In this document: positions 10,091-60,664 of the stretch, in pieces
Layout: each line of letters opens with the position of its first letter
How positions within the stretch are numbered: the first letter of the stretch is position 1
Source: Escherichia phage allfine
Strand: one strand, 5' to 3'
Sequence record: MN850633.1
Length of the DNA: 64,000 bases
Program-made: the position numbers and the translations under genes
Notes under the pieces: generated by a model
What the model was told of the DNA's origin: nothing
Databases searched by the model: none
Seen by the model: the letters and a program-made list of their open reading frames with translations, nothing else

Positions 10091-10136
10091 TATAAATTTT
10101 CCTCTTAAAAGGGGCTATAAAGCCCCTGTAAAGAAA

Positions 10137-38020: not shown

Positions 38021-38127
38021 GTTTAAATAGCCTTTTTAGAGGAACCTTTTAAGTTATCTTCTAAGTATTTATAAGCCTACACCTTGTCAAGTACTTTGTC
38101 AACAACTTTTTTAACTTGCAATAGTTC

Positions 38128-40935: not shown

Positions 40936-40960
40936 AGGCTCCTTCGGGAGCCTTTTTTAT
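40936..40960 (+). terminator. intrinsic terminator after endolysin
   Basis: GGCTCC-TTCG-GGAGCC followed by TTTTTTATTTT. Confidence 0.6.
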
Positions 40961-42975: not shown

Positions 42976-43058
42976 CCGAGTATACAATATTGACTATGAT
43001 GGGAGCTATCGAGAGGTAGTTCCCTTTTTAGTTTCTAGATAAGAGACATGGTAAAAGA

Positions 43059-48692: not shown

Positions 48693-48778
48693 TTTTTGAA
48701 TCTCCAGTTTAGGATTTAGTGGTAAAGCTCTTTATCTGGGGCTTACTTTATCGAACTATAAGCCCCTTGTAAAGTACT
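48693..48778 (-). promoter_or_regulatory. family-B upstream cassette with promoter-like TTTACA-17-TAAAGT inside a 29 bp palindrome
   Basis: Minus-sense AGTACTTTACAAGGGGCTTATAGTTCGATAAAGTAAGCCCC...CTAAACTGGAGATTCAAAAATG; copies at 49488-49573, 50557-50648 (variant), 51162-51249, 51523-51596, 51978-52065. Confidence 0.5.
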
Positions 48779-49487: not shown

Positions 49488-49573
49488 TTTTAAGTTCTCC
49501 AGTTTAGGATTTAGTGGTAAAGCTCTTTATCTGGGGCTTACTTTATCGAACTATAAGCCCCCTGTAAAGTACT

Positions 49574-50556: not shown

Positions 50557-50648
50557 TTTAGAATCTCCTAGTTTAAGGGCTTTATTTGATAAATCTCTTT
50601 ATCTGGGGCTATCTTACCAGCTTGATAACCCCGTGTAAAGAAATCTAT

Positions 50649-51161: not shown

Positions 51162-51249
51162 TTTTGAATCTCCAGTTTAGGATTTAGTGGTAAAGCTCTT
51201 TATCTGGGGCTTAAGATATCAACTTTTAAGCCCCTTGTAAAGTACTTTA

Positions 51250-51522
51250 TCAGATTAAATTGCCAGTTAATGATAAGTGCATTTTATAGCCTTTTTTGGT
51301 AAAGACGTTCACTTTACCGAGTGATTTTACACCTTTAAAAAGGTTGTTTGAACTGCGTTTTAAGGTTAGTTGTTTATCAGCCTTTACTCCCCATCTTACA
51401 GCGGATTGTTTTCCGTTGTCAACCACTTTCCCGCATAACTTTTTAGCCATAACGCGAGCGTCATCACGAGTTTTTGCAGCAATTACAACGTTTTTGATAA
51501 TAGCCATTTTTAAGTTCTCCAA
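51250..51522 (-). CDS. hypothetical basic protein (90 aa)
   Basis: ORF preceded by family-B cassette. Confidence 0.5.
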   Translation of the reverse strand: MENLKMAIIKNVVIAAKTRDDARVMAKKLCGKVVDNGKQSAVRWGVKADKQLTLKRSSNNLFKGVKSLGKVNVFTKKGYKMHLSLTGNLI

Positions 51523-51596
51523 TTTAGGATTTAGTGGTAAAGCTCTTTATCTGGGGCTTACTTTATCGAACTATAAGCCCCTTGTAAAGTACTTTA

Positions 51597-51977
51597 TCAG
51601 TTAATTTTGAAAATTGTCACATAGCCGTCACTGCCGATTATTTGAGACACTCCAGCTTTTTCCACTGAATAGCCCATATTTTCAAGATGATAAACAGCAT
51701 CATCATAACCATATGCGCCACCCTGATAACGTCTCTTATCGCATCTTATCAGGTTTTTACCACGTCCTGCAAGTGCATTCAGTACAGCTTTTTCACTTGA
51801 TAGCGTACCATCTAACATGGTTGCCGTGTAATGGTTGATTTTATTCCCGTTAATATCATACTTAAAATTGAATGCGTGAATAACAATCAATTTGCCGTTA
51901 AATTTTTCATCAAGTGACTTCTCCAGTGCGTTGCGGAAGTTGTCTTTGTTGATGAATTTCGGTGCACGATAAGCCAT
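51597..51977 (-). CDS. hypothetical protein (126 aa)
   Basis: ORF preceded by family-B cassette. Confidence 0.5.
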   Translation of the reverse strand: MAYRAPKFINKDNFRNALEKSLDEKFNGKLIVIHAFNFKYDINGNKINHYTATMLDGTLSSEKAVLNALAGRGKNLIRCDKRRYQGGAYGYDDAVYHLENMGYSVEKAGVSQIIGSDGYVTIFKIN

Positions 51978-52065
51978 TTTTGAATCTCCTAGTTTAAGGT
52001 TAATGTAGTAAAGCTCTTTATCTGGGGCTTACTTTATCGAACTATAAGCCCCTTGTAAAGTACTT

Positions 52066-52460: not shown

Positions 52461-52699
52461 TTCTTAGATTCTCCAGTTTAGGAAGTGGGCTTGATTGCCC
52501 GTCTGATGCAGATATTAGATAACCATACTCAAAGAGTCAATAGGAATTTTAAAAATATTTTTTTTTGCAAAGATTGTAATGAAACGGGTGCGCGCGACTA
52601 CCATAAAACAGAACTACAATCAAGAATTATTTTTCAATCCGCTACAAATTTTTCTGTTGACTTTTATTTCCAGATGTGGTAGCCTTGTGAGAAATGGCG

Positions 52700-52925
52700 A
52701 CATCCCTACCTGCACCCACCTACCTGCACAATTCTAAAATGATTTTTCTTGCCCGACCTGATTTTTCTCTGCACGTTTTGAAAATGAAAAAGCTCTTTGG
52801 AGATTACCTGCACAGTTTGAAAATGAATTTTCCCTTTGGAGTTCAAAATTTTCTCTACAGATTTCTCTACAGAACTCTACCTGCACAATCCTGAAATGAA
52901 AAAGCCCCCCTTACCTGAAAAATTT
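52700..52925. repeat. iteron-like array: four to five copies of TACCTGCACA...AAAATGA units plus 11 bp tandem TTCTCTACAGA
   Basis: TACCTGCAC at 52707, 52721, 52805, 52878 and TTACCTGAAA at 52911; TTCTCTACAGATTTCTCTACAGA at about 52852-52874. Confidence 0.5.
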
Positions 52926-52972
52926 ACCAGATAAGAAAGGCTTAGTCTATTGTGAATACTATACAGAATTTC

Positions 52973-57008: not shown

Positions 57009-57075
57009 TGGTTCTCCTGTTTAGTTTATCGTGACAACAATTATACAGCACTCTGCACAAAATACAAATAAAAAA

Positions 57076-57108: not shown

Positions 57109-58218
57109 TTAGATTTCACGTTTACGTTGGGAGATTAGTTCACCAGCAGTGCCAACGATGACATGCAAAGCTTCAGTCTTGCCATCCCATTCTTTCAGCA
57201 CTTTACGTTGATTATCAACGATTGCTGCAACTTCATAACGAGACGAACGCATCTTCATATCGTTGTAATCAGTTGGAACAGATACAACATCTCGTGGATG
57301 GACACGAACCTTCAGGATTGTATCACCTGAGAAGCAACGAACATAATCCCAAGCACCAACGTGAAGACCCTGAGAGCAAGTCACGTTACGGTTATTATCA
57401 ACCATCCAACGTGGCATTTCTACAATGTTACCCAAATCATTAGGTACTCTGTAGGTGTGGGAGTCAACCAGCTTGCCTTCATGAGTAGAGACTTTCTTCC
57501 AACCAATGATGTAGCCTTCTTCATCAATTTCAACATCAAGGTGAGATACGAATCCCCAAAGTTGTTCTACAGAGTCTTTAGATGGGTTTTCCATCAGTTT
57601 TTCGAAGAACATCACAAGGCGTTCAAAACCCTTATCTCCAGTCTTCATCATGTGAAGAATACGGTCAACCAGAGTAGAACGCATCTCAACAGCACCGTAG
57701 AATAACTTGTCACCTTTGATGGTGATAGCACCCTGAGTGAAGTTTTCGATAGACTTACGAATGTTCATCAGTTCGAAAGCTTTCTTATACTCACCGGATA
57801 CAACAGCCATCACGATTTCTTTGTAGTTCGGATGGGTAGATTCAACGATTTCAGAATCTGCACCGAAAGTCATGATAACAGAGTCGCCAGTAATCATGTA
57901 CTCAATCTGGTTGCCATTCTGCATAGCTTCATGCAGTTTATTTACCGGAGCTTTCTGTACATCCTCGTTAACAGCCTTTTTAACTGGCTTGTCAGCTTTC
58001 TTTTTAACTGATTTAGCAACTTGCTTCAAAGTCTTCGTAGCTGGTTTAGAAGCTACCTTTTTCTTACCTTTTAAGGTTGCTTCATGACGCTCTACAGCAC
58101 GACCAACTGAACGGGTTGAGGTGTTAAATTTCTGTGCAATAGCTGTTTTAGTCAGCTTACCCTCTTTAACCAGTTTGTAAATTTCTGCGTCAATCTGTGC
58201 TTTAGTTTTAGTAGTCAT
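57109..58218 (-). CDS. rIIB: rIIB-like protein
   Basis: Immediately downstream of rIIA-like gene; N-terminal HTH-like region; assignment rests mainly on synteny. Confidence 0.4.
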   Translation of the reverse strand: MTTKTKAQIDAEIYKLVKEGKLTKTAIAQKFNTSTRSVGRAVERHEATLKGKKKVASKPATKTLKQVAKSVKKKADKPVKKAVNEDVQKAPVNKLHEAMQNGNQIEYMITGDSVIMTFGADSEIVESTHPNYKEIVMAVVSGEYKKAFELMNIRKSIENFTQGAITIKGDKLFYGAVEMRSTLVDRILHMMKTGDKGFERLVMFFEKLMENPSKDSVEQLWGFVSHLDVEIDEEGYIIGWKKVSTHEGKLVDSHTYRVPNDLGNIVEMPRWMVDNNRNVTCSQGLHVGAWDYVRCFSGDTILKVRVHPRDVVSVPTDYNDMKMRSSRYEVAAIVDNQRKVLKEWDGKTEALHVIVGTAGELISQRKREI

Positions 58219-58262
58219 CTTATTACTCTCTCTTGTTAGTTAATAAATCATTTTGTGAGACT

Positions 58263-58292
58263 ATTCTAAGGGGCTTCAAAGCCCCTTGTCAA
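58263..58292 (-). promoter_or_regulatory. sigma70-like promoter TTGACA-18-TAGAAT with spacer forming a hairpin
   Basis: Minus-sense TTGACA (rc of 58287-58292) and TAGAAT (rc of 58263-58268); spacer is palindrome AGGGGCTTTGAAGCCCCT. Confidence 0.45.
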
Positions 58293-58297
58293 ACACT

Positions 58298-60664
58298 TTA
58301 ATCGTAAATTGTAGTCCCTTCTGGAACACACTTCACATCAAAGCCCAAGAACTTACTCACTTCGATGGGTGACACTTTATTCCAATCTAAATGAGAAAGC
58401 AAGAAGTTTTCTTGTTTCCTTTTTGAGAAGTAGTTTGTCACCTTAATAAACATACGGTCACCAGCTTTCTTAATTTTCTTGTAAAGCTTTGTATCATTAT
58501 CAAGACACCTTTTCAAATCTTGCAACACACTAATAGTGTAAGTGTATGCAAATTGTGCAGCAATGTATTGGATTTTACCGAACATTGCCTCAACAGCATC
58601 TTCATTACCTTCTAGGAAGATAGTTTTGTTTGTATCCCGTGAATAGCAATAACCATCAGAAATCTTCCTGTTATTGAACGTAAAGTTTCTGGTAATAATC
58701 CAACAGCTTGTAAGGTCTAGGACACCACGCATACAGACGCGTGTCATATACCTGTTATGATTAATCCAATGAACATCAGTTAAGCTGTCGTTCAAGAGCT
58801 TCTCATCTACTTCAATCCAGTCTTCTGGTATCTTTTTCCAATTTGCTTTTCGGAAAACATAGACTGTCTTTCCAATGACATTGGCAACTGACTTAGCTAC
58901 ATCATCTGGAGATGAGCAAAAACATTCGCCATCAACTGTGTCACCTACTGCCTTAATATAAAGCTGAGGCTCTTCAATCGTGTCTAAGTCTTCTGACACC
59001 TCTGTGTATGAGGCTACACCTTCTGCTGGAACAGCTTTCCAGAGTTTTACAACACCTCTTACAGCTTCTTTACGCTGATAGTGATGTTCCTTATCAGACA
59101 TCTTCACAATCTTTAACAAGCTTTTATCAAGTTTGTGTAGGTTGATTAAGTCATCTAGCTCTTTTTCAGTCGAGAATACAAACACAATACCATTATATCT
59201 GTGAAACAGACTTGACTCACTGGCGTAATCTCGACATGCACCACGCAGAATCTGATTGCGGCCTACAGTCTTCTCAGTGCCATTTTTATTACGACGGTCA
59301 TTAATCACGAACAAAAACTGTTCAATTTGGCTTTTACGCATTGCACCAAAGATATTGAACATACTTGCCTCTTGAGTGTAGGAAAGTGCTGTTGCACGAA
59401 TCTTACTCTCTAAAGAGTTGAACTTGACATAAGCAACTGGATTATAAAGATAATCCACTTTAGGGATATTGTTCCCGTTCCTATCAACCTTGATATTACC
59501 TTTACCGTCACGTTCATAAATGACTGAGCCGTCTTCTGCGTAGATAATCCCACGACGGATGTTTAGTAATTCTACTTCCAGAGAATCAAGCTTAACGCCT
59601 CCCCACTCTAGCTTTGGACACACAACATTAAACATCTCTCGTGAGTTCAAACGTAACTCAGCATAAGCCTGTGCAGCATCCATGAGTGTAGGTTGGCTGT
59701 TAACTTTCTTGATAACATCCTTTGTAATGGCTTCAGTTATCTTTTTAGTAGCCTCAATGATAACATTTTTTGTCGTATCATTCATCTGCAATGCTTCACG
59801 AGAAGCTGCAATAGCAACTGAACCAATAGGCATGTAAATGTTTACAAGGTCTACGCTCCTACGGAAAAACTCTGGCAAGACTTTGAAGAAATCATCACCA
59901 AGTAATGCTTCCATATTAACTGGATAGGCAATATTACCCATCACCACATTAAACTCTGTCCTGTTACCACTAGAACGCCAGCTTTGCTTATGAATCATAG
60001 CGTCATAAACACCTTCTTCACGAGCAATGACATTCATGTCTGCTAACACGTCATCATATACAATATTACTTTCTGGTTTTACAGCAAAGTATGAGTATAC
60101 GTGACCAGCCTCTTCAAAGAACTTTGAAATACGGTGGTCAGCAACTGCCACACGTACAGCTAAACCATTAGGTTCTTTTGTTGGGTTAGTGGTCAGCTTA
60201 GTTACTTGAGGGATACCATTCTCAAGGTAAACAGAGTACTTATTAACAACACCATCAACATAGCTAGATACTGTGAATGACTGAGCAATTGCAAATGGAG
60301 ATTTTGAACCGATACCCATTGCACCAATGTAATCATTAGAGTCATTCTTCGTAGAAGCCCCGTAGTTTAGGTACAAACTCATAACTTTATCATGAGTCAA
60401 TCCAGTTCCAAAATCACGGACTTCAAAGTAAGGCTCAAAACGAGTAGGTAAATGCACATGGAACGGGATATTCTCTTTTCCAGCTTCTTTCTGAGCATCT
60501 ACTGCGTTACATGACAGTTCACGAATCACTGCCCTTTCTTTAAAGGTATATACACCAGAACTCAAAAGGCTGAACATTTCAGGTGTCATTGTAATCTGTG
60601 CTTGAGATGTCTCCAAAGAAGTTGAACTCTTAATCACTTCTGCGTGGTCATTTACCATGCGCAT
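58298..60664 (-). CDS. rIIA: rIIA-like protein with GHKL/Bergerat ATPase fold
   Basis: N-box-like ELSCNAVDA and G1-box-like DFGTGLTHD near N-terminus; 788 aa. Confidence 0.6.
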   Translation of the reverse strand: MRMVNDHAEVIKSSTSLETSQAQITMTPEMFSLLSSGVYTFKERAVIRELSCNAVDAQKEAGKENIPFHVHLPTRFEPYFEVRDFGTGLTHDKVMSLYLNYGASTKNDSNDYIGAMGIGSKSPFAIAQSFTVSSYVDGVVNKYSVYLENGIPQVTKLTTNPTKEPNGLAVRVAVADHRISKFFEEAGHVYSYFAVKPESNIVYDDVLADMNVIAREEGVYDAMIHKQSWRSSGNRTEFNVVMGNIAYPVNMEALLGDDFFKVLPEFFRRSVDLVNIYMPIGSVAIAASREALQMNDTTKNVIIEATKKITEAITKDVIKKVNSQPTLMDAAQAYAELRLNSREMFNVVCPKLEWGGVKLDSLEVELLNIRRGIIYAEDGSVIYERDGKGNIKVDRNGNNIPKVDYLYNPVAYVKFNSLESKIRATALSYTQEASMFNIFGAMRKSQIEQFLFVINDRRNKNGTEKTVGRNQILRGACRDYASESSLFHRYNGIVFVFSTEKELDDLINLHKLDKSLLKIVKMSDKEHHYQRKEAVRGVVKLWKAVPAEGVASYTEVSEDLDTIEEPQLYIKAVGDTVDGECFCSSPDDVAKSVANVIGKTVYVFRKANWKKIPEDWIEVDEKLLNDSLTDVHWINHNRYMTRVCMRGVLDLTSCWIITRNFTFNNRKISDGYCYSRDTNKTIFLEGNEDAVEAMFGKIQYIAAQFAYTYTISVLQDLKRCLDNDTKLYKKIKKAGDRMFIKVTNYFSKRKQENFLLSHLDWNKVSPIEVSKFLGFDVKCVPEGTTIYD

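Follow-up and report, generated by a model that had tools for sequence, protein, structure and literature searches.

The stretch of DNA analyzed here, hereafter the window, comprises 64,000 nucleotides of Escherichia phage allfine (MN850633.1). It is Felixounavirus (Ounavirinae) genome DNA, 97.5% identical to Escherichia Felixounavirus genomes. The element in question is a promoter-like cassette of 30 bp located on the minus strand, in the 79-nt gap between the rIIA-like and the rIIB-like genes, where 58292..58263 reads TTGACA-AGGGGCTTTGAAGCCCCT-TAGAAT. In minus sense, the rIIA stop codon TAA (58300-58298) is followed by AGTGT, the hexamer TTGACA (58292-58287), AGGGGCTTTGAAGCCCCT (58286-58269) and the hexamer TAGAAT (58268-58263). 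The -35 element begins 5 nt past the rIIA stop codon and the rIIB ATG lies 44 nt beyond the cassette. The features of the locus, the genes being taken from the list of open reading frames (ORFs), are as follows.

58298..60664, minus strand: rIIA-like gene, 788 aa, named rIIA in relatives; its TAA is the first triplet of the cassette
58293..58305, minus strand: A/T-rich stretch ACGATTAAAGTGT just 5' of the -35 element, read from the sequence
58287..58292, minus strand: -35 hexamer TTGACA, 6/6 in the consensus scan
58269..58286, minus strand: 18-nt spacer AGGGGCTTTGAAGCCCCT, a perfect palindrome read from the sequence
58263..58268, minus strand: -10 hexamer TAGAAT, 5/6 in the consensus scan, A2 and T6 present
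58254..58258, minus strand: predicted transcription start zone, about 7 nt past the -10 element (A at 58256), from promoter geometry
58226..58233, minus strand: Shine-Dalgarno-like AGAGAGAG 5' of the rIIB ATG (58218-58216), read from the sequence and conserved in relatives
57109..58218, minus strand: rIIB-like gene, 369 aa, named rIIB in relatives, putatively served by the promoter

With its 18-nt spacer, the cassette scored 11/12 in the consensus scan, a score of at least 11/12 being reached by only 7 sites on both strands of the whole window. The spacer consists of two 8-nt arms (AGGGGCTT/AAGCCCCT) around a 2-nt centre. Because a perfect palindrome with 8-bp arms is expected by chance at a frequency of about 4^-8 per site, the coincidence of hexamers and palindrome is not a matter of chance. 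Indeed, the rIIB site is the only one of the 152 promoter-like sites of the window with a spacer stem of at least 7 bp. In a looser pattern, a GC-rich hairpin starts 0-3 nt past a -35-like hexamer; the transcribed strand has 11 such sites and the other strand none, against 1.9 ± 1.4 occurrences (maximum 5) on both strands together in dinucleotide shuffles. At the RNA level, the spacer plus one base on each side (58287-58268) is predicted to fold into a GC-rich stem of 8 bp, AAGGGGCU/AGCCCCUU, closed by a UUGA loop (dG of -13.3 kcal/mol, z = -3.4). The arms GGGGCT/AGCCCC are also found in T-run terminators at 10127 and 63057; the T-run terminators of the window have UUCG loops.

The gap was compared with those of 29 IMG/VR loci (numbered with the prefix L) and of Citrobacter phage Mordin, with rIIB identities down to 77%. 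All of them share a near-invariant block, TTGACA(A)GGGGCT....AGCCCCTTA(G/A)AATA. The -35 hexamer is unchanged in 30/31 relatives, the exception being L024 (TTGACT, position 6), and the -10 hexamer differs at position 3 only (TAAAAT in L014, L026 and L029). In the divergent, Mooglevirus-like group the spacer is one base shorter (N17). The 7 nt past the -10 element form the most variable stretch of the gap (GTCTCAC, GCCTTAC, ACCTCAC, GCATCAC, TCCTCAC or CGAACCAC), and the predicted start zone falls within it. Since hexamers and spacing are kept, changes occur at tolerated positions and the start region is variable, which is the conservation pattern of sigma70 promoters, the site has the appearance of a genuine rIIB promoter of the sigma70 type. 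Besides, BPROM listed “27,984 TTGACA / CCTTAGAAT” in Felixounavirus UAB_Phi87, whose rIIB starts at 27,947 (PMC4837284, supplement). In Felix O1, RT-PCR placed the maximum of ORF2 (rIIB) at 10 min and that of ORF1 (rIIA) at 25 min (PMC3185647); rIIB and rIIA are thus in different temporal classes. The genome paper of this phage tabulated neither a promoter nor a terminator at the rIIA-rIIB gap (PMC3185647). An earlier note on this DNA had read TTGACA, a palindromic spacer and TAGAAT at 58263-58292 and had taken them for the promoter of the rIIB-like gene. The arrangement was recovered as such on the minus strand, and its assignment to rIIB agrees with the conserved hexamers and spacing, the UAB_Phi87 site and the Felix O1 timing.

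Both arms of the stem are nearly invariant across 31 loci while the loop varies, with GNRA loops (GAAA, GCAA) in sense orientation in the Mooglevirus-like group. Among close relatives (L001-L029), the centre of the palindrome (58277-58278) is TG in 14 and CA in 9, and never TA or CG. It inverts as a unit and occurs in all four combinations with flanking single-nucleotide polymorphisms (SNPs) within 20 nt, on both sides. Its state is incompatible with 4/6 informative sites within 25 nt (background 0.26), which ranks it 35 of 197 sites. Recurrent inversion of the loop as a special process was set aside at this rank, mosaic recombination accounting for TG/CA equally well. Indeed, the two cannot be separated because the site is no outlier among SNPs.

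Beyond these relatives, a hairpin with a predicted energy between -12.1 and -15.9 kcal/mol was found in the gap of six Ounavirinae lineages, with unrelated arms.

Window: AAGGGGCU/AGCCCCUU, -13.3 kcal/mol
Mordin: GGGGCU-GAAA-AGCCCC, -13.5 kcal/mol
phiEa21-4: GGGCUG-GAAA-CAGCCC, -12.6 kcal/mol
Arno162: UGGUGGC/GCCACCA, -13.0 kcal/mol
L030: AAGUGGUC/GGCCACUU, -12.1 kcal/mol
L066: GGCGGGG/CCCCGUC, -15.9 kcal/mol

The hairpin is therefore a constant feature of the rIIA-rIIB gap across the Ounavirinae lineages compared, and none of the six has a U-tract 3' of it. Its position relative to the hexamers changes from one lineage to another: promoter-like hexamers flank it in Felixounavirus and Mooglevirus, the -10 element lies within its loop in L065 and L066 (TTGACA-N18-TAATAT), and promoter-like hexamers stand about 10 nt upstream of it in Arno162.

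Related cassettes occur elsewhere in the window. The small-gene array at 47-52.5 kb contains two cassette families, A and B, with a common 3' part. Family B counts 6 copies, with -35 elements starting at 52059, 51588, 51241, 50639, 49568 and 48773 on the minus strand and the sequence TAAAGTAC-TTTACA-A-GGGGCTTAT-agttcgataaa-GTAAGCCCC-AGATAAAG. In this layout, TTTACA-N17-TAAAGT, the -10 element lies within the loop of a 9-bp hairpin.

52016..52059, minus strand: family-B core, TTTACA-N17-TAAAGT, hairpin GGGGCTTAT/GTAAGCCCC, then AGATAAAG
51545..51588, minus strand: family-B core of the same type as 52016..52059
51198..51241, minus strand: family-B core, -10 TATCTT, arms GGGGCTTAA/TTAAGCCCC
50597..50639, minus strand: family-B core, -10 TAAGAT, arms GGGGTTATC/GATAGCCCC, one T.G wobble
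49525..49568, minus strand: family-B core
48730..48773, minus strand: family-B core

The rIIB site matches family B at 19/22 positions between the stop codon and the end of the 5' arm (TAAAGTgtTTgACAAGGGGCTT vs TAAAGTacTTtACAAGGGGCTT), and the 3' arm AAGCCCC is common to both, preceding the -10 element at rIIB and following it in family B. The kinship with family B that had been claimed from the shared arms is supported by both observations.

Base pairing was counted by script, on end-anchored stem pairs, in 20 distinct family-B cores pooled from the window and its relatives; a MAFFT alignment of the cores placed an indel in the stem and so was not used for this purpose. The -10 element keeps T1, A2 and T6 (TAAAGT, TAAGAT, TATCTT, TAGTAT, TATGAT) at N17 or N18. 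Compensatory double changes occur at stem pairs 7-9, in step with the final bases of the -10 element, and pair 5 alternates between C-G and T.G. Over pairs 5-9, 98/100 cells were paired, while permuted 3' arms gave a mean of 72 and a maximum of 93, with 0/5000 permutations reaching 98, a figure that overstates independence because the copies are related to each other. Over the whole stem, 178/180 cells were paired on the sense strand versus 163/180 on the antisense strand. Given the compensatory changes, and wobble pairs that favour the sense strand, the direction is clear: what is selected in the family-B stem is its structure on the transcribed strand, i.e., in RNA.

Such a combination of promoter and hairpin is known from the T4-type phages RB49 and phi1, in which cassettes of overlapping early promoter and stem-loop were described as PeSLs (promoter-early stem-loops). 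Arbiol, Comeau and Krisch (2010) distinguished five subclasses by the position of the stem-loop, one of them having it between -35 and -10, and PeSLs start with the stop codon upstream and extend to the Shine-Dalgarno sequence and ATG (PMC2839356). In their constructs, the PeSL211/210 stem-loop reduced lacZ expression to a similar extent as rrnB T1, and the promoters of PeSL206/205 and 193/192 were so strong that nearly all clones had mutations in -35 or -10 (PMC2839356). In the RB49 genome, PeSL211/210 reads ...AAAGTTG-TTGACA-GGGGATCACGTATCCCC-TATACT and PeSL206/205 reads TAAAGTTG-TTGACA-GGGGATCGGTGATCCCC-TATAAT, both having the same layout as TAAAGTGT-TTGACA-AGGGGCTTTGAAGCCCCT-TAGAAT in the window and likewise no U-tract. 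A scan of RB49 from 1 to 50 kb retrieved all the geometries of the window, i.e., a hairpin in the spacer, a -10 element in the loop and a hairpin just past -10; RB49 rIIB itself is preceded by a promoter-like TTGTAG-N17-TATAAT and then a hairpin.

A covariance model was built solely from six RB49 spacer-hairpin PeSLs, and 128 kb were searched with it. The rIIB site (58302..58253, minus strand) was the second-best match in the window, with 22.3 bits and an E-value of about 0.02, which is borderline and roughly calibrated. It was the only top match with the stem aligned as a stem; the other top matches share the extended promoter context, such as AAAAAAGTTGTTGACA (16/16) at 38112.

Compared feature by feature with the RB49 and phi1 cassettes (PMC2839356; Comeau et al. 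2014, PMC4122927), the rIIB element has intergenic sigma70 -35 and -10 hexamers whose 18-nt spacer falls within the 16-18 nt of such cassettes, and a stable stem-loop of a G-run and a C-run between them. It begins at a stop codon and continues through an A/T-rich region to Shine-Dalgarno sequence and start codon (TAA-AGTGT-TTGACA...AGAGAGAG...ATG). The likeness extends to the AAAGT(T)G context, which ACGATTAAAGTGT resembles and which also precedes other early promoters of the window, to TTGACA with a hairpin spacer of 17-18 nt, to the -10 element without U-tract, and to a start region similar to the GGAGAATCAAAAATG of RB49. As with PeSLs, the family-A and family-B copies bound small genes in an array of varying content; with 4 or more and 6 or more copies, respectively, they display the PeSL trait of clustered copies flanking small genes.

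Some differences were noted. The window belongs to a Felixounavirus (Ounavirinae) and not to a T4-type myovirus. The rIIB cassette is one orthologous site per genome, a single copy between conserved genes and conserved across genera, whereas PeSLs cluster around ORFans in a hyperplastic region. The stem is GGGGCTT instead of GGGGATC. Finally, promoter and terminator activities were shown in reporter assays for the RB49 and phi1 cassettes and would be predicted for the present one; recombination between copies (indels, mini-circles) is a further trait of PeSLs. Because the element fits the PeSL description in its sequence features, apart from host and copy number, it was assigned to this kind: the rIIB site is a further example of a known design, outside T4-like phages, and not a new mechanism. 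A new PeSL variant defined by the spacer hairpin was ruled out by the subclass already described and by the RB49 cassettes. In the literature searched, PeSLs were not reported for Felix O1-like phages, and a search for promoter stem-loops in phiEa21-4 returned nothing useful. A narrow pattern search across the collection (GGGG-N3-7-CCCC spacer) retrieved 7 scattered phage contigs; the layout occurs elsewhere, which adds little. The proposal that the repeated design marks a co-regulated gene class holds in part: host-RNA-polymerase early promoters with PeSL-type stem-loops do recur, but the exact layout with the hairpin as spacer is present once per genome.

Taken together, the rIIA-rIIB gap probably holds a PeSL-type composite cassette, with a sigma70 early promoter and an RNA stem-loop in the same 30 bp. 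The sequence itself, its conservation, the kinship with family B, the covariation and strand bias of the latter and the match to RB49 PeSLs were all computed here; for promoter activity and termination, the published RB49 and phi1 cassettes of the same layout serve as models. From these, we infer both activities at the rIIB site and the position of the transcription start. At the DNA level, TTGACA-N18-TAGAAT would act as a host sigma70 promoter of the early class, and the rIIB transcript would begin at about 58256, some 38 nt upstream of the ATG. At the RNA level, the spacer would fold into the 8-bp stem-loop only in transcripts arriving from rIIA, because it is located upstream of the promoter's own start. 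The stem-loop would most likely attenuate or terminate read-through from rIIA, or leave a 3' hairpin protecting the rIIA message, and rIIB expression would then be set by its own promoter.

Both roles proposed for the stem-loop have known counterparts. C(UUCG)G hairpins were first noted in T4 intergenic regions, and stable intergenic hairpins protect the ends of phage and bacterial mRNA. Like them, the present hairpin is short, very stable and located where a coding region ends, with GNRA tetraloops in relatives; unlike them, it lacks a special tetraloop in the window (loop UUGA or UCAA), and its stabilising role is putative. It also resembles Rho-independent terminators, such as t2 after rIIB in Felix O1 (PMC3185647, Table 2), in having a GC-rich stem of 6-8 bp and a 4-nt loop, within the usual 3-8 nt, near a stop codon. 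It differs from them in lacking a U-tract directly 3' of the stem (tail TTAGAATA) and in being absent from the Felix O1 terminator table; likewise, it was not called in the terminator scan of the window.

Several points weigh against this composite cassette. The hairpin tail, UUAGAAUA, is where the -10 element sits, and since UUAGAAU stands in place of a U-tract, the hairpin fails the usual rule for intrinsic terminators; termination at the rIIB site is argued by analogy with one RB49 construct. A spacer of 18 nt that is GC-rich is suboptimal for sigma70. A G>A change weakens the stem in L004 and L029 (dG of -8.8), and a strong hairpin is therefore not indispensable. In phiEa21-4-type phages the hairpin has no flanking hexamers, promoter-like hexamers being found about 40 nt upstream, inside rIIA; the functions of promoter and hairpin are thus separable. 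Lastly, the literature searched yielded no mapped transcription start and no mapped 3' end for Felix O1-like phages.

As to the origin of the cassette, one tentative possibility is that PeSL-type cassettes are mobile regulatory modules from a common pool, which unrelated coliphage families (Krischvirus RB49/phi1 and Felixounavirus) share by descent or exchange, and that one such module became fixed at the rIIA-rIIB junction. Beyond the hexamers, the window and RB49 share TAAAGT(T)G before the -35 element, as in the 16/16 match at 38112, GGGG...CCCC stems, ACACATCA past the -10 element and GGAGA(A/T)TCnAAAATG at the start codon. These shared flanks hint at exchange over convergence and cannot decide between them. 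The hairpin might in addition serve as a point of DNA fold-back or recombination, an idea suggested by the inversion of the TG/CA centre.

The hairpin could instead be solely an RNA signal at the end of rIIA, a weak terminator or 3' stabiliser, with hexamers that are no working promoter and rIIB expressed by read-through. The hairpin is the only feature of the gap present in all the Ounavirinae lineages compared, including the phiEa21-4 type with its missing hexamers, and the GC-rich 18-nt spacer points the same way. However, both hexamers are conserved in untranslated DNA in which adjacent bases vary, their few changes occurring at tolerated positions, and the family-B paralogues preserve T1, A2 and T6 of the -10 element despite sequence turnover. 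As rIIB peaks before rIIA in Felix O1 (PMC3185647) and an RB49 cassette of the same layout is a very strong promoter (PMC2839356), expression by read-through is considered unlikely.

Conversely, the promoter might be real and the palindrome a functionless relic of recombination or gene conversion between cassettes, given the 5' half common to the rIIB site and family B, an array that is mosaic between relatives and the stem mismatch tolerated in two of them. A relic would hardly account for arms that stay nearly invariant over 31 loci around a changing loop, for lineages of 41-61% rIIB identity whose hairpin is equally stable but built from other arms, or for the covariation of the related family-B stems, and this origin is improbable.

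The earlier note had further suggested that the palindrome is a site for a phage-encoded regulator, i.e., a DNA operator whose GGGGCTT/AAGCCCC half-sites are bound by a dimeric protein, such as a regulator shutting off early promoters or a recombination protein. The rIIB site and the six family-B cassettes do have the same arm, equally far from -35, and Arbiol et al. speculated that GGGG...CCCC could be a protein target (PMC2839356). Yet the fixed half-site spacing and the sequence conservation of such an operator were not found: the gap between half-sites is 2 nt at rIIB, 11-13 nt in family B and 4 nt in the T-run terminators, and arms in other lineages are unrelated while stability is kept. 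Because arms differ between lineages and centre gaps vary within the genome, a sequence-specific protein site is unlikely; the T.G wobbles, tolerated on the sense strand only, the compensatory swaps and the better sense-strand pairing argue in the same direction, and this suggestion was abandoned as quite improbable. As a possible binding protein, rIIB itself was considered through its N-terminus, where residues ~2-43 (58099-58218, minus strand) match the helix-turn-helix family HTH_Tnp_ISL3 with 18.5 bits, below the cutoff of 27.4. This candidate was rejected, the Pfam match being sub-threshold and the segment being conserved across lineages whose arms differ.

Lastly, a supercoiling switch, in which a cruciform extruded between -35 and -10 turns the promoter off, is very improbable: a perfect 8+8 palindrome fills the spacer and its TG/CA centre flips as a unit in close relatives, as expected of DNA fold-back, but arms of 8 bp are short for cruciform extrusion in vivo, the family-B wobble pairs would turn into C.A mismatches on the opposite strand, the hairpin of family B and of distant relatives stands in other registers where extrusion would act differently, and the flip is, given mosaicism, not more homoplasious than ordinary SNPs. 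Horwitz and Loeb reportedly engineered a cruciform-regulated promoter in 1988, and phage N4, which acts with its own polymerase, uses hairpin promoters for its virion RNA polymerase. These systems share with the window a palindrome within or at the promoter; they rely on a DNA hairpin or cruciform extrusion, whereas an RNA-level stem is favoured here. Felix O1-type phages encode no RNA polymerase (PMC3185647).

With the PeSL-type composite cassette, the rIIA-rIIB junction and the small-gene array of Felix O1-like phages receive a concrete regulatory annotation; these phages are in wide use for Salmonella and E. coli typing and biocontrol. In the Felix O1 genome paper, how transcription passes the many terminators, by read-through or from downstream secondary promoters, and its timing were stated as not known (PMC3185647). 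To a specialist the site is neat but unsurprising. Through it, the PeSL idea, with its possible part in gene shuffling, reaches a second myovirus group, unrelated to the first. For phage engineering, edits in the 30 bp before rIIB can alter both the ends of the rIIA message and the initiation of rIIB, because two superimposed signals probably lie there.

Further observations concern the small-gene array. Family-A cassettes, read from the sequence, lie as follows.

47248, minus strand: family-A cassette
47812, minus strand: family-A cassette
49035, minus strand: family-A cassette
49898, minus strand: family-A cassette

They consist of a TTGACA-like -35 element, N17, TAAATT, 10 nt and the hairpin GGGGAGG-gaatga-CCTTCCCC without T-run, and share ...TACACATCA and the Shine-Dalgarno context with RB49 PeSLs. 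Transcripts would begin with this hairpin, so it may stabilise their 5' ends. Past rIIB (47-52.5 kb), the order of cassettes is B B B B A B A B A A A in the window and A B A B A B A in L070; L068 has ten B cassettes and L073 three (loci compared: L068, L070, L073, L086, L087 and L092). Repeated cassettes bound this stretch, a hyperplastic region of small genes. Another cassette of family-B layout with unrelated arms, TTGACA-ata-CCCCTTGA-cattggtaactttgt-TCGAGGGG, occupies 47384-47340 (minus strand); its C-rich arm comes first, a polarity opposite to that of the other cassettes. The family-B cassettes at 51588 and 51241 bracket a minus-strand ORF of about 85 aa (ATGGCTATTATCAAAAAC...TGA) in 51250-51510, over which the gene caller picked an overlapping plus-strand ORF (51296-51604); the minus-strand one is probably a real small gene.

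Elsewhere in the window, four T-run terminator hairpins begin 0-3 nt past the -10 element of a sigma70-like promoter, with a chance probability of about 2e-7.

40936-40953, plus strand: promoter-then-terminator site, TTGACA-N17-TATCTT
43001-43024, plus strand: promoter-then-terminator site, TTGACC-N17-TATGAT
55300-55283, minus strand: promoter-then-terminator site, TTGCTA-N17-TAAGAT
61228-61205, minus strand: promoter-then-terminator site, TTGACA-N16-TATGAT

Start sites of these promoters would fall in or at the 5' arm of the terminator, which matches the PeSL subclass with a stem-loop downstream of -10. A motif (C)TTAAAC or ACTAAAC stands 3' of the gap hairpin in L033, L062 and L067 (phiEa21-4 type) and in L030, L031, L065 and L066, as well as 3' of some RB49 PeSL hairpins (38220, 36985); the motif may represent a common leader element 5' of the Shine-Dalgarno sequence.

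The N-terminus of rIIB resembles RB49p274 (L102, 1277-1408), a separate ORF of 43 aa between RB49 rIIA and rIIB. A BLASTP search of the rIIB N-terminus against RB49p274 gave no match, and the Smith-Waterman score of 46, against 24.9 ± 4.7 for shuffles (4/2000 reaching 46), lends modest support to the resemblance, which may reflect the fusion or splitting of genes at the rII locus. In a gene-free gap of 512 nt (52461-52972, minus strand), spaced repeats of tcattttcaaaNTGTGCAGGTA lie at 52879, 52806 and 52722, about 75-85 nt apart, and a similar TTGTGCAGAG (57051-57060, minus strand) stands about 9 nt 5' of a TATAAT that precedes the next gene after rIIB. An Rfam scan of 46-64 kb returned nothing meaningful. 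The consensus TTGTGCAGRT, with at most 1 mismatch, occurs 23 times versus 10.8 ± 3.7 expected, and these repeats could be a phage-specific promoter box or iterons.

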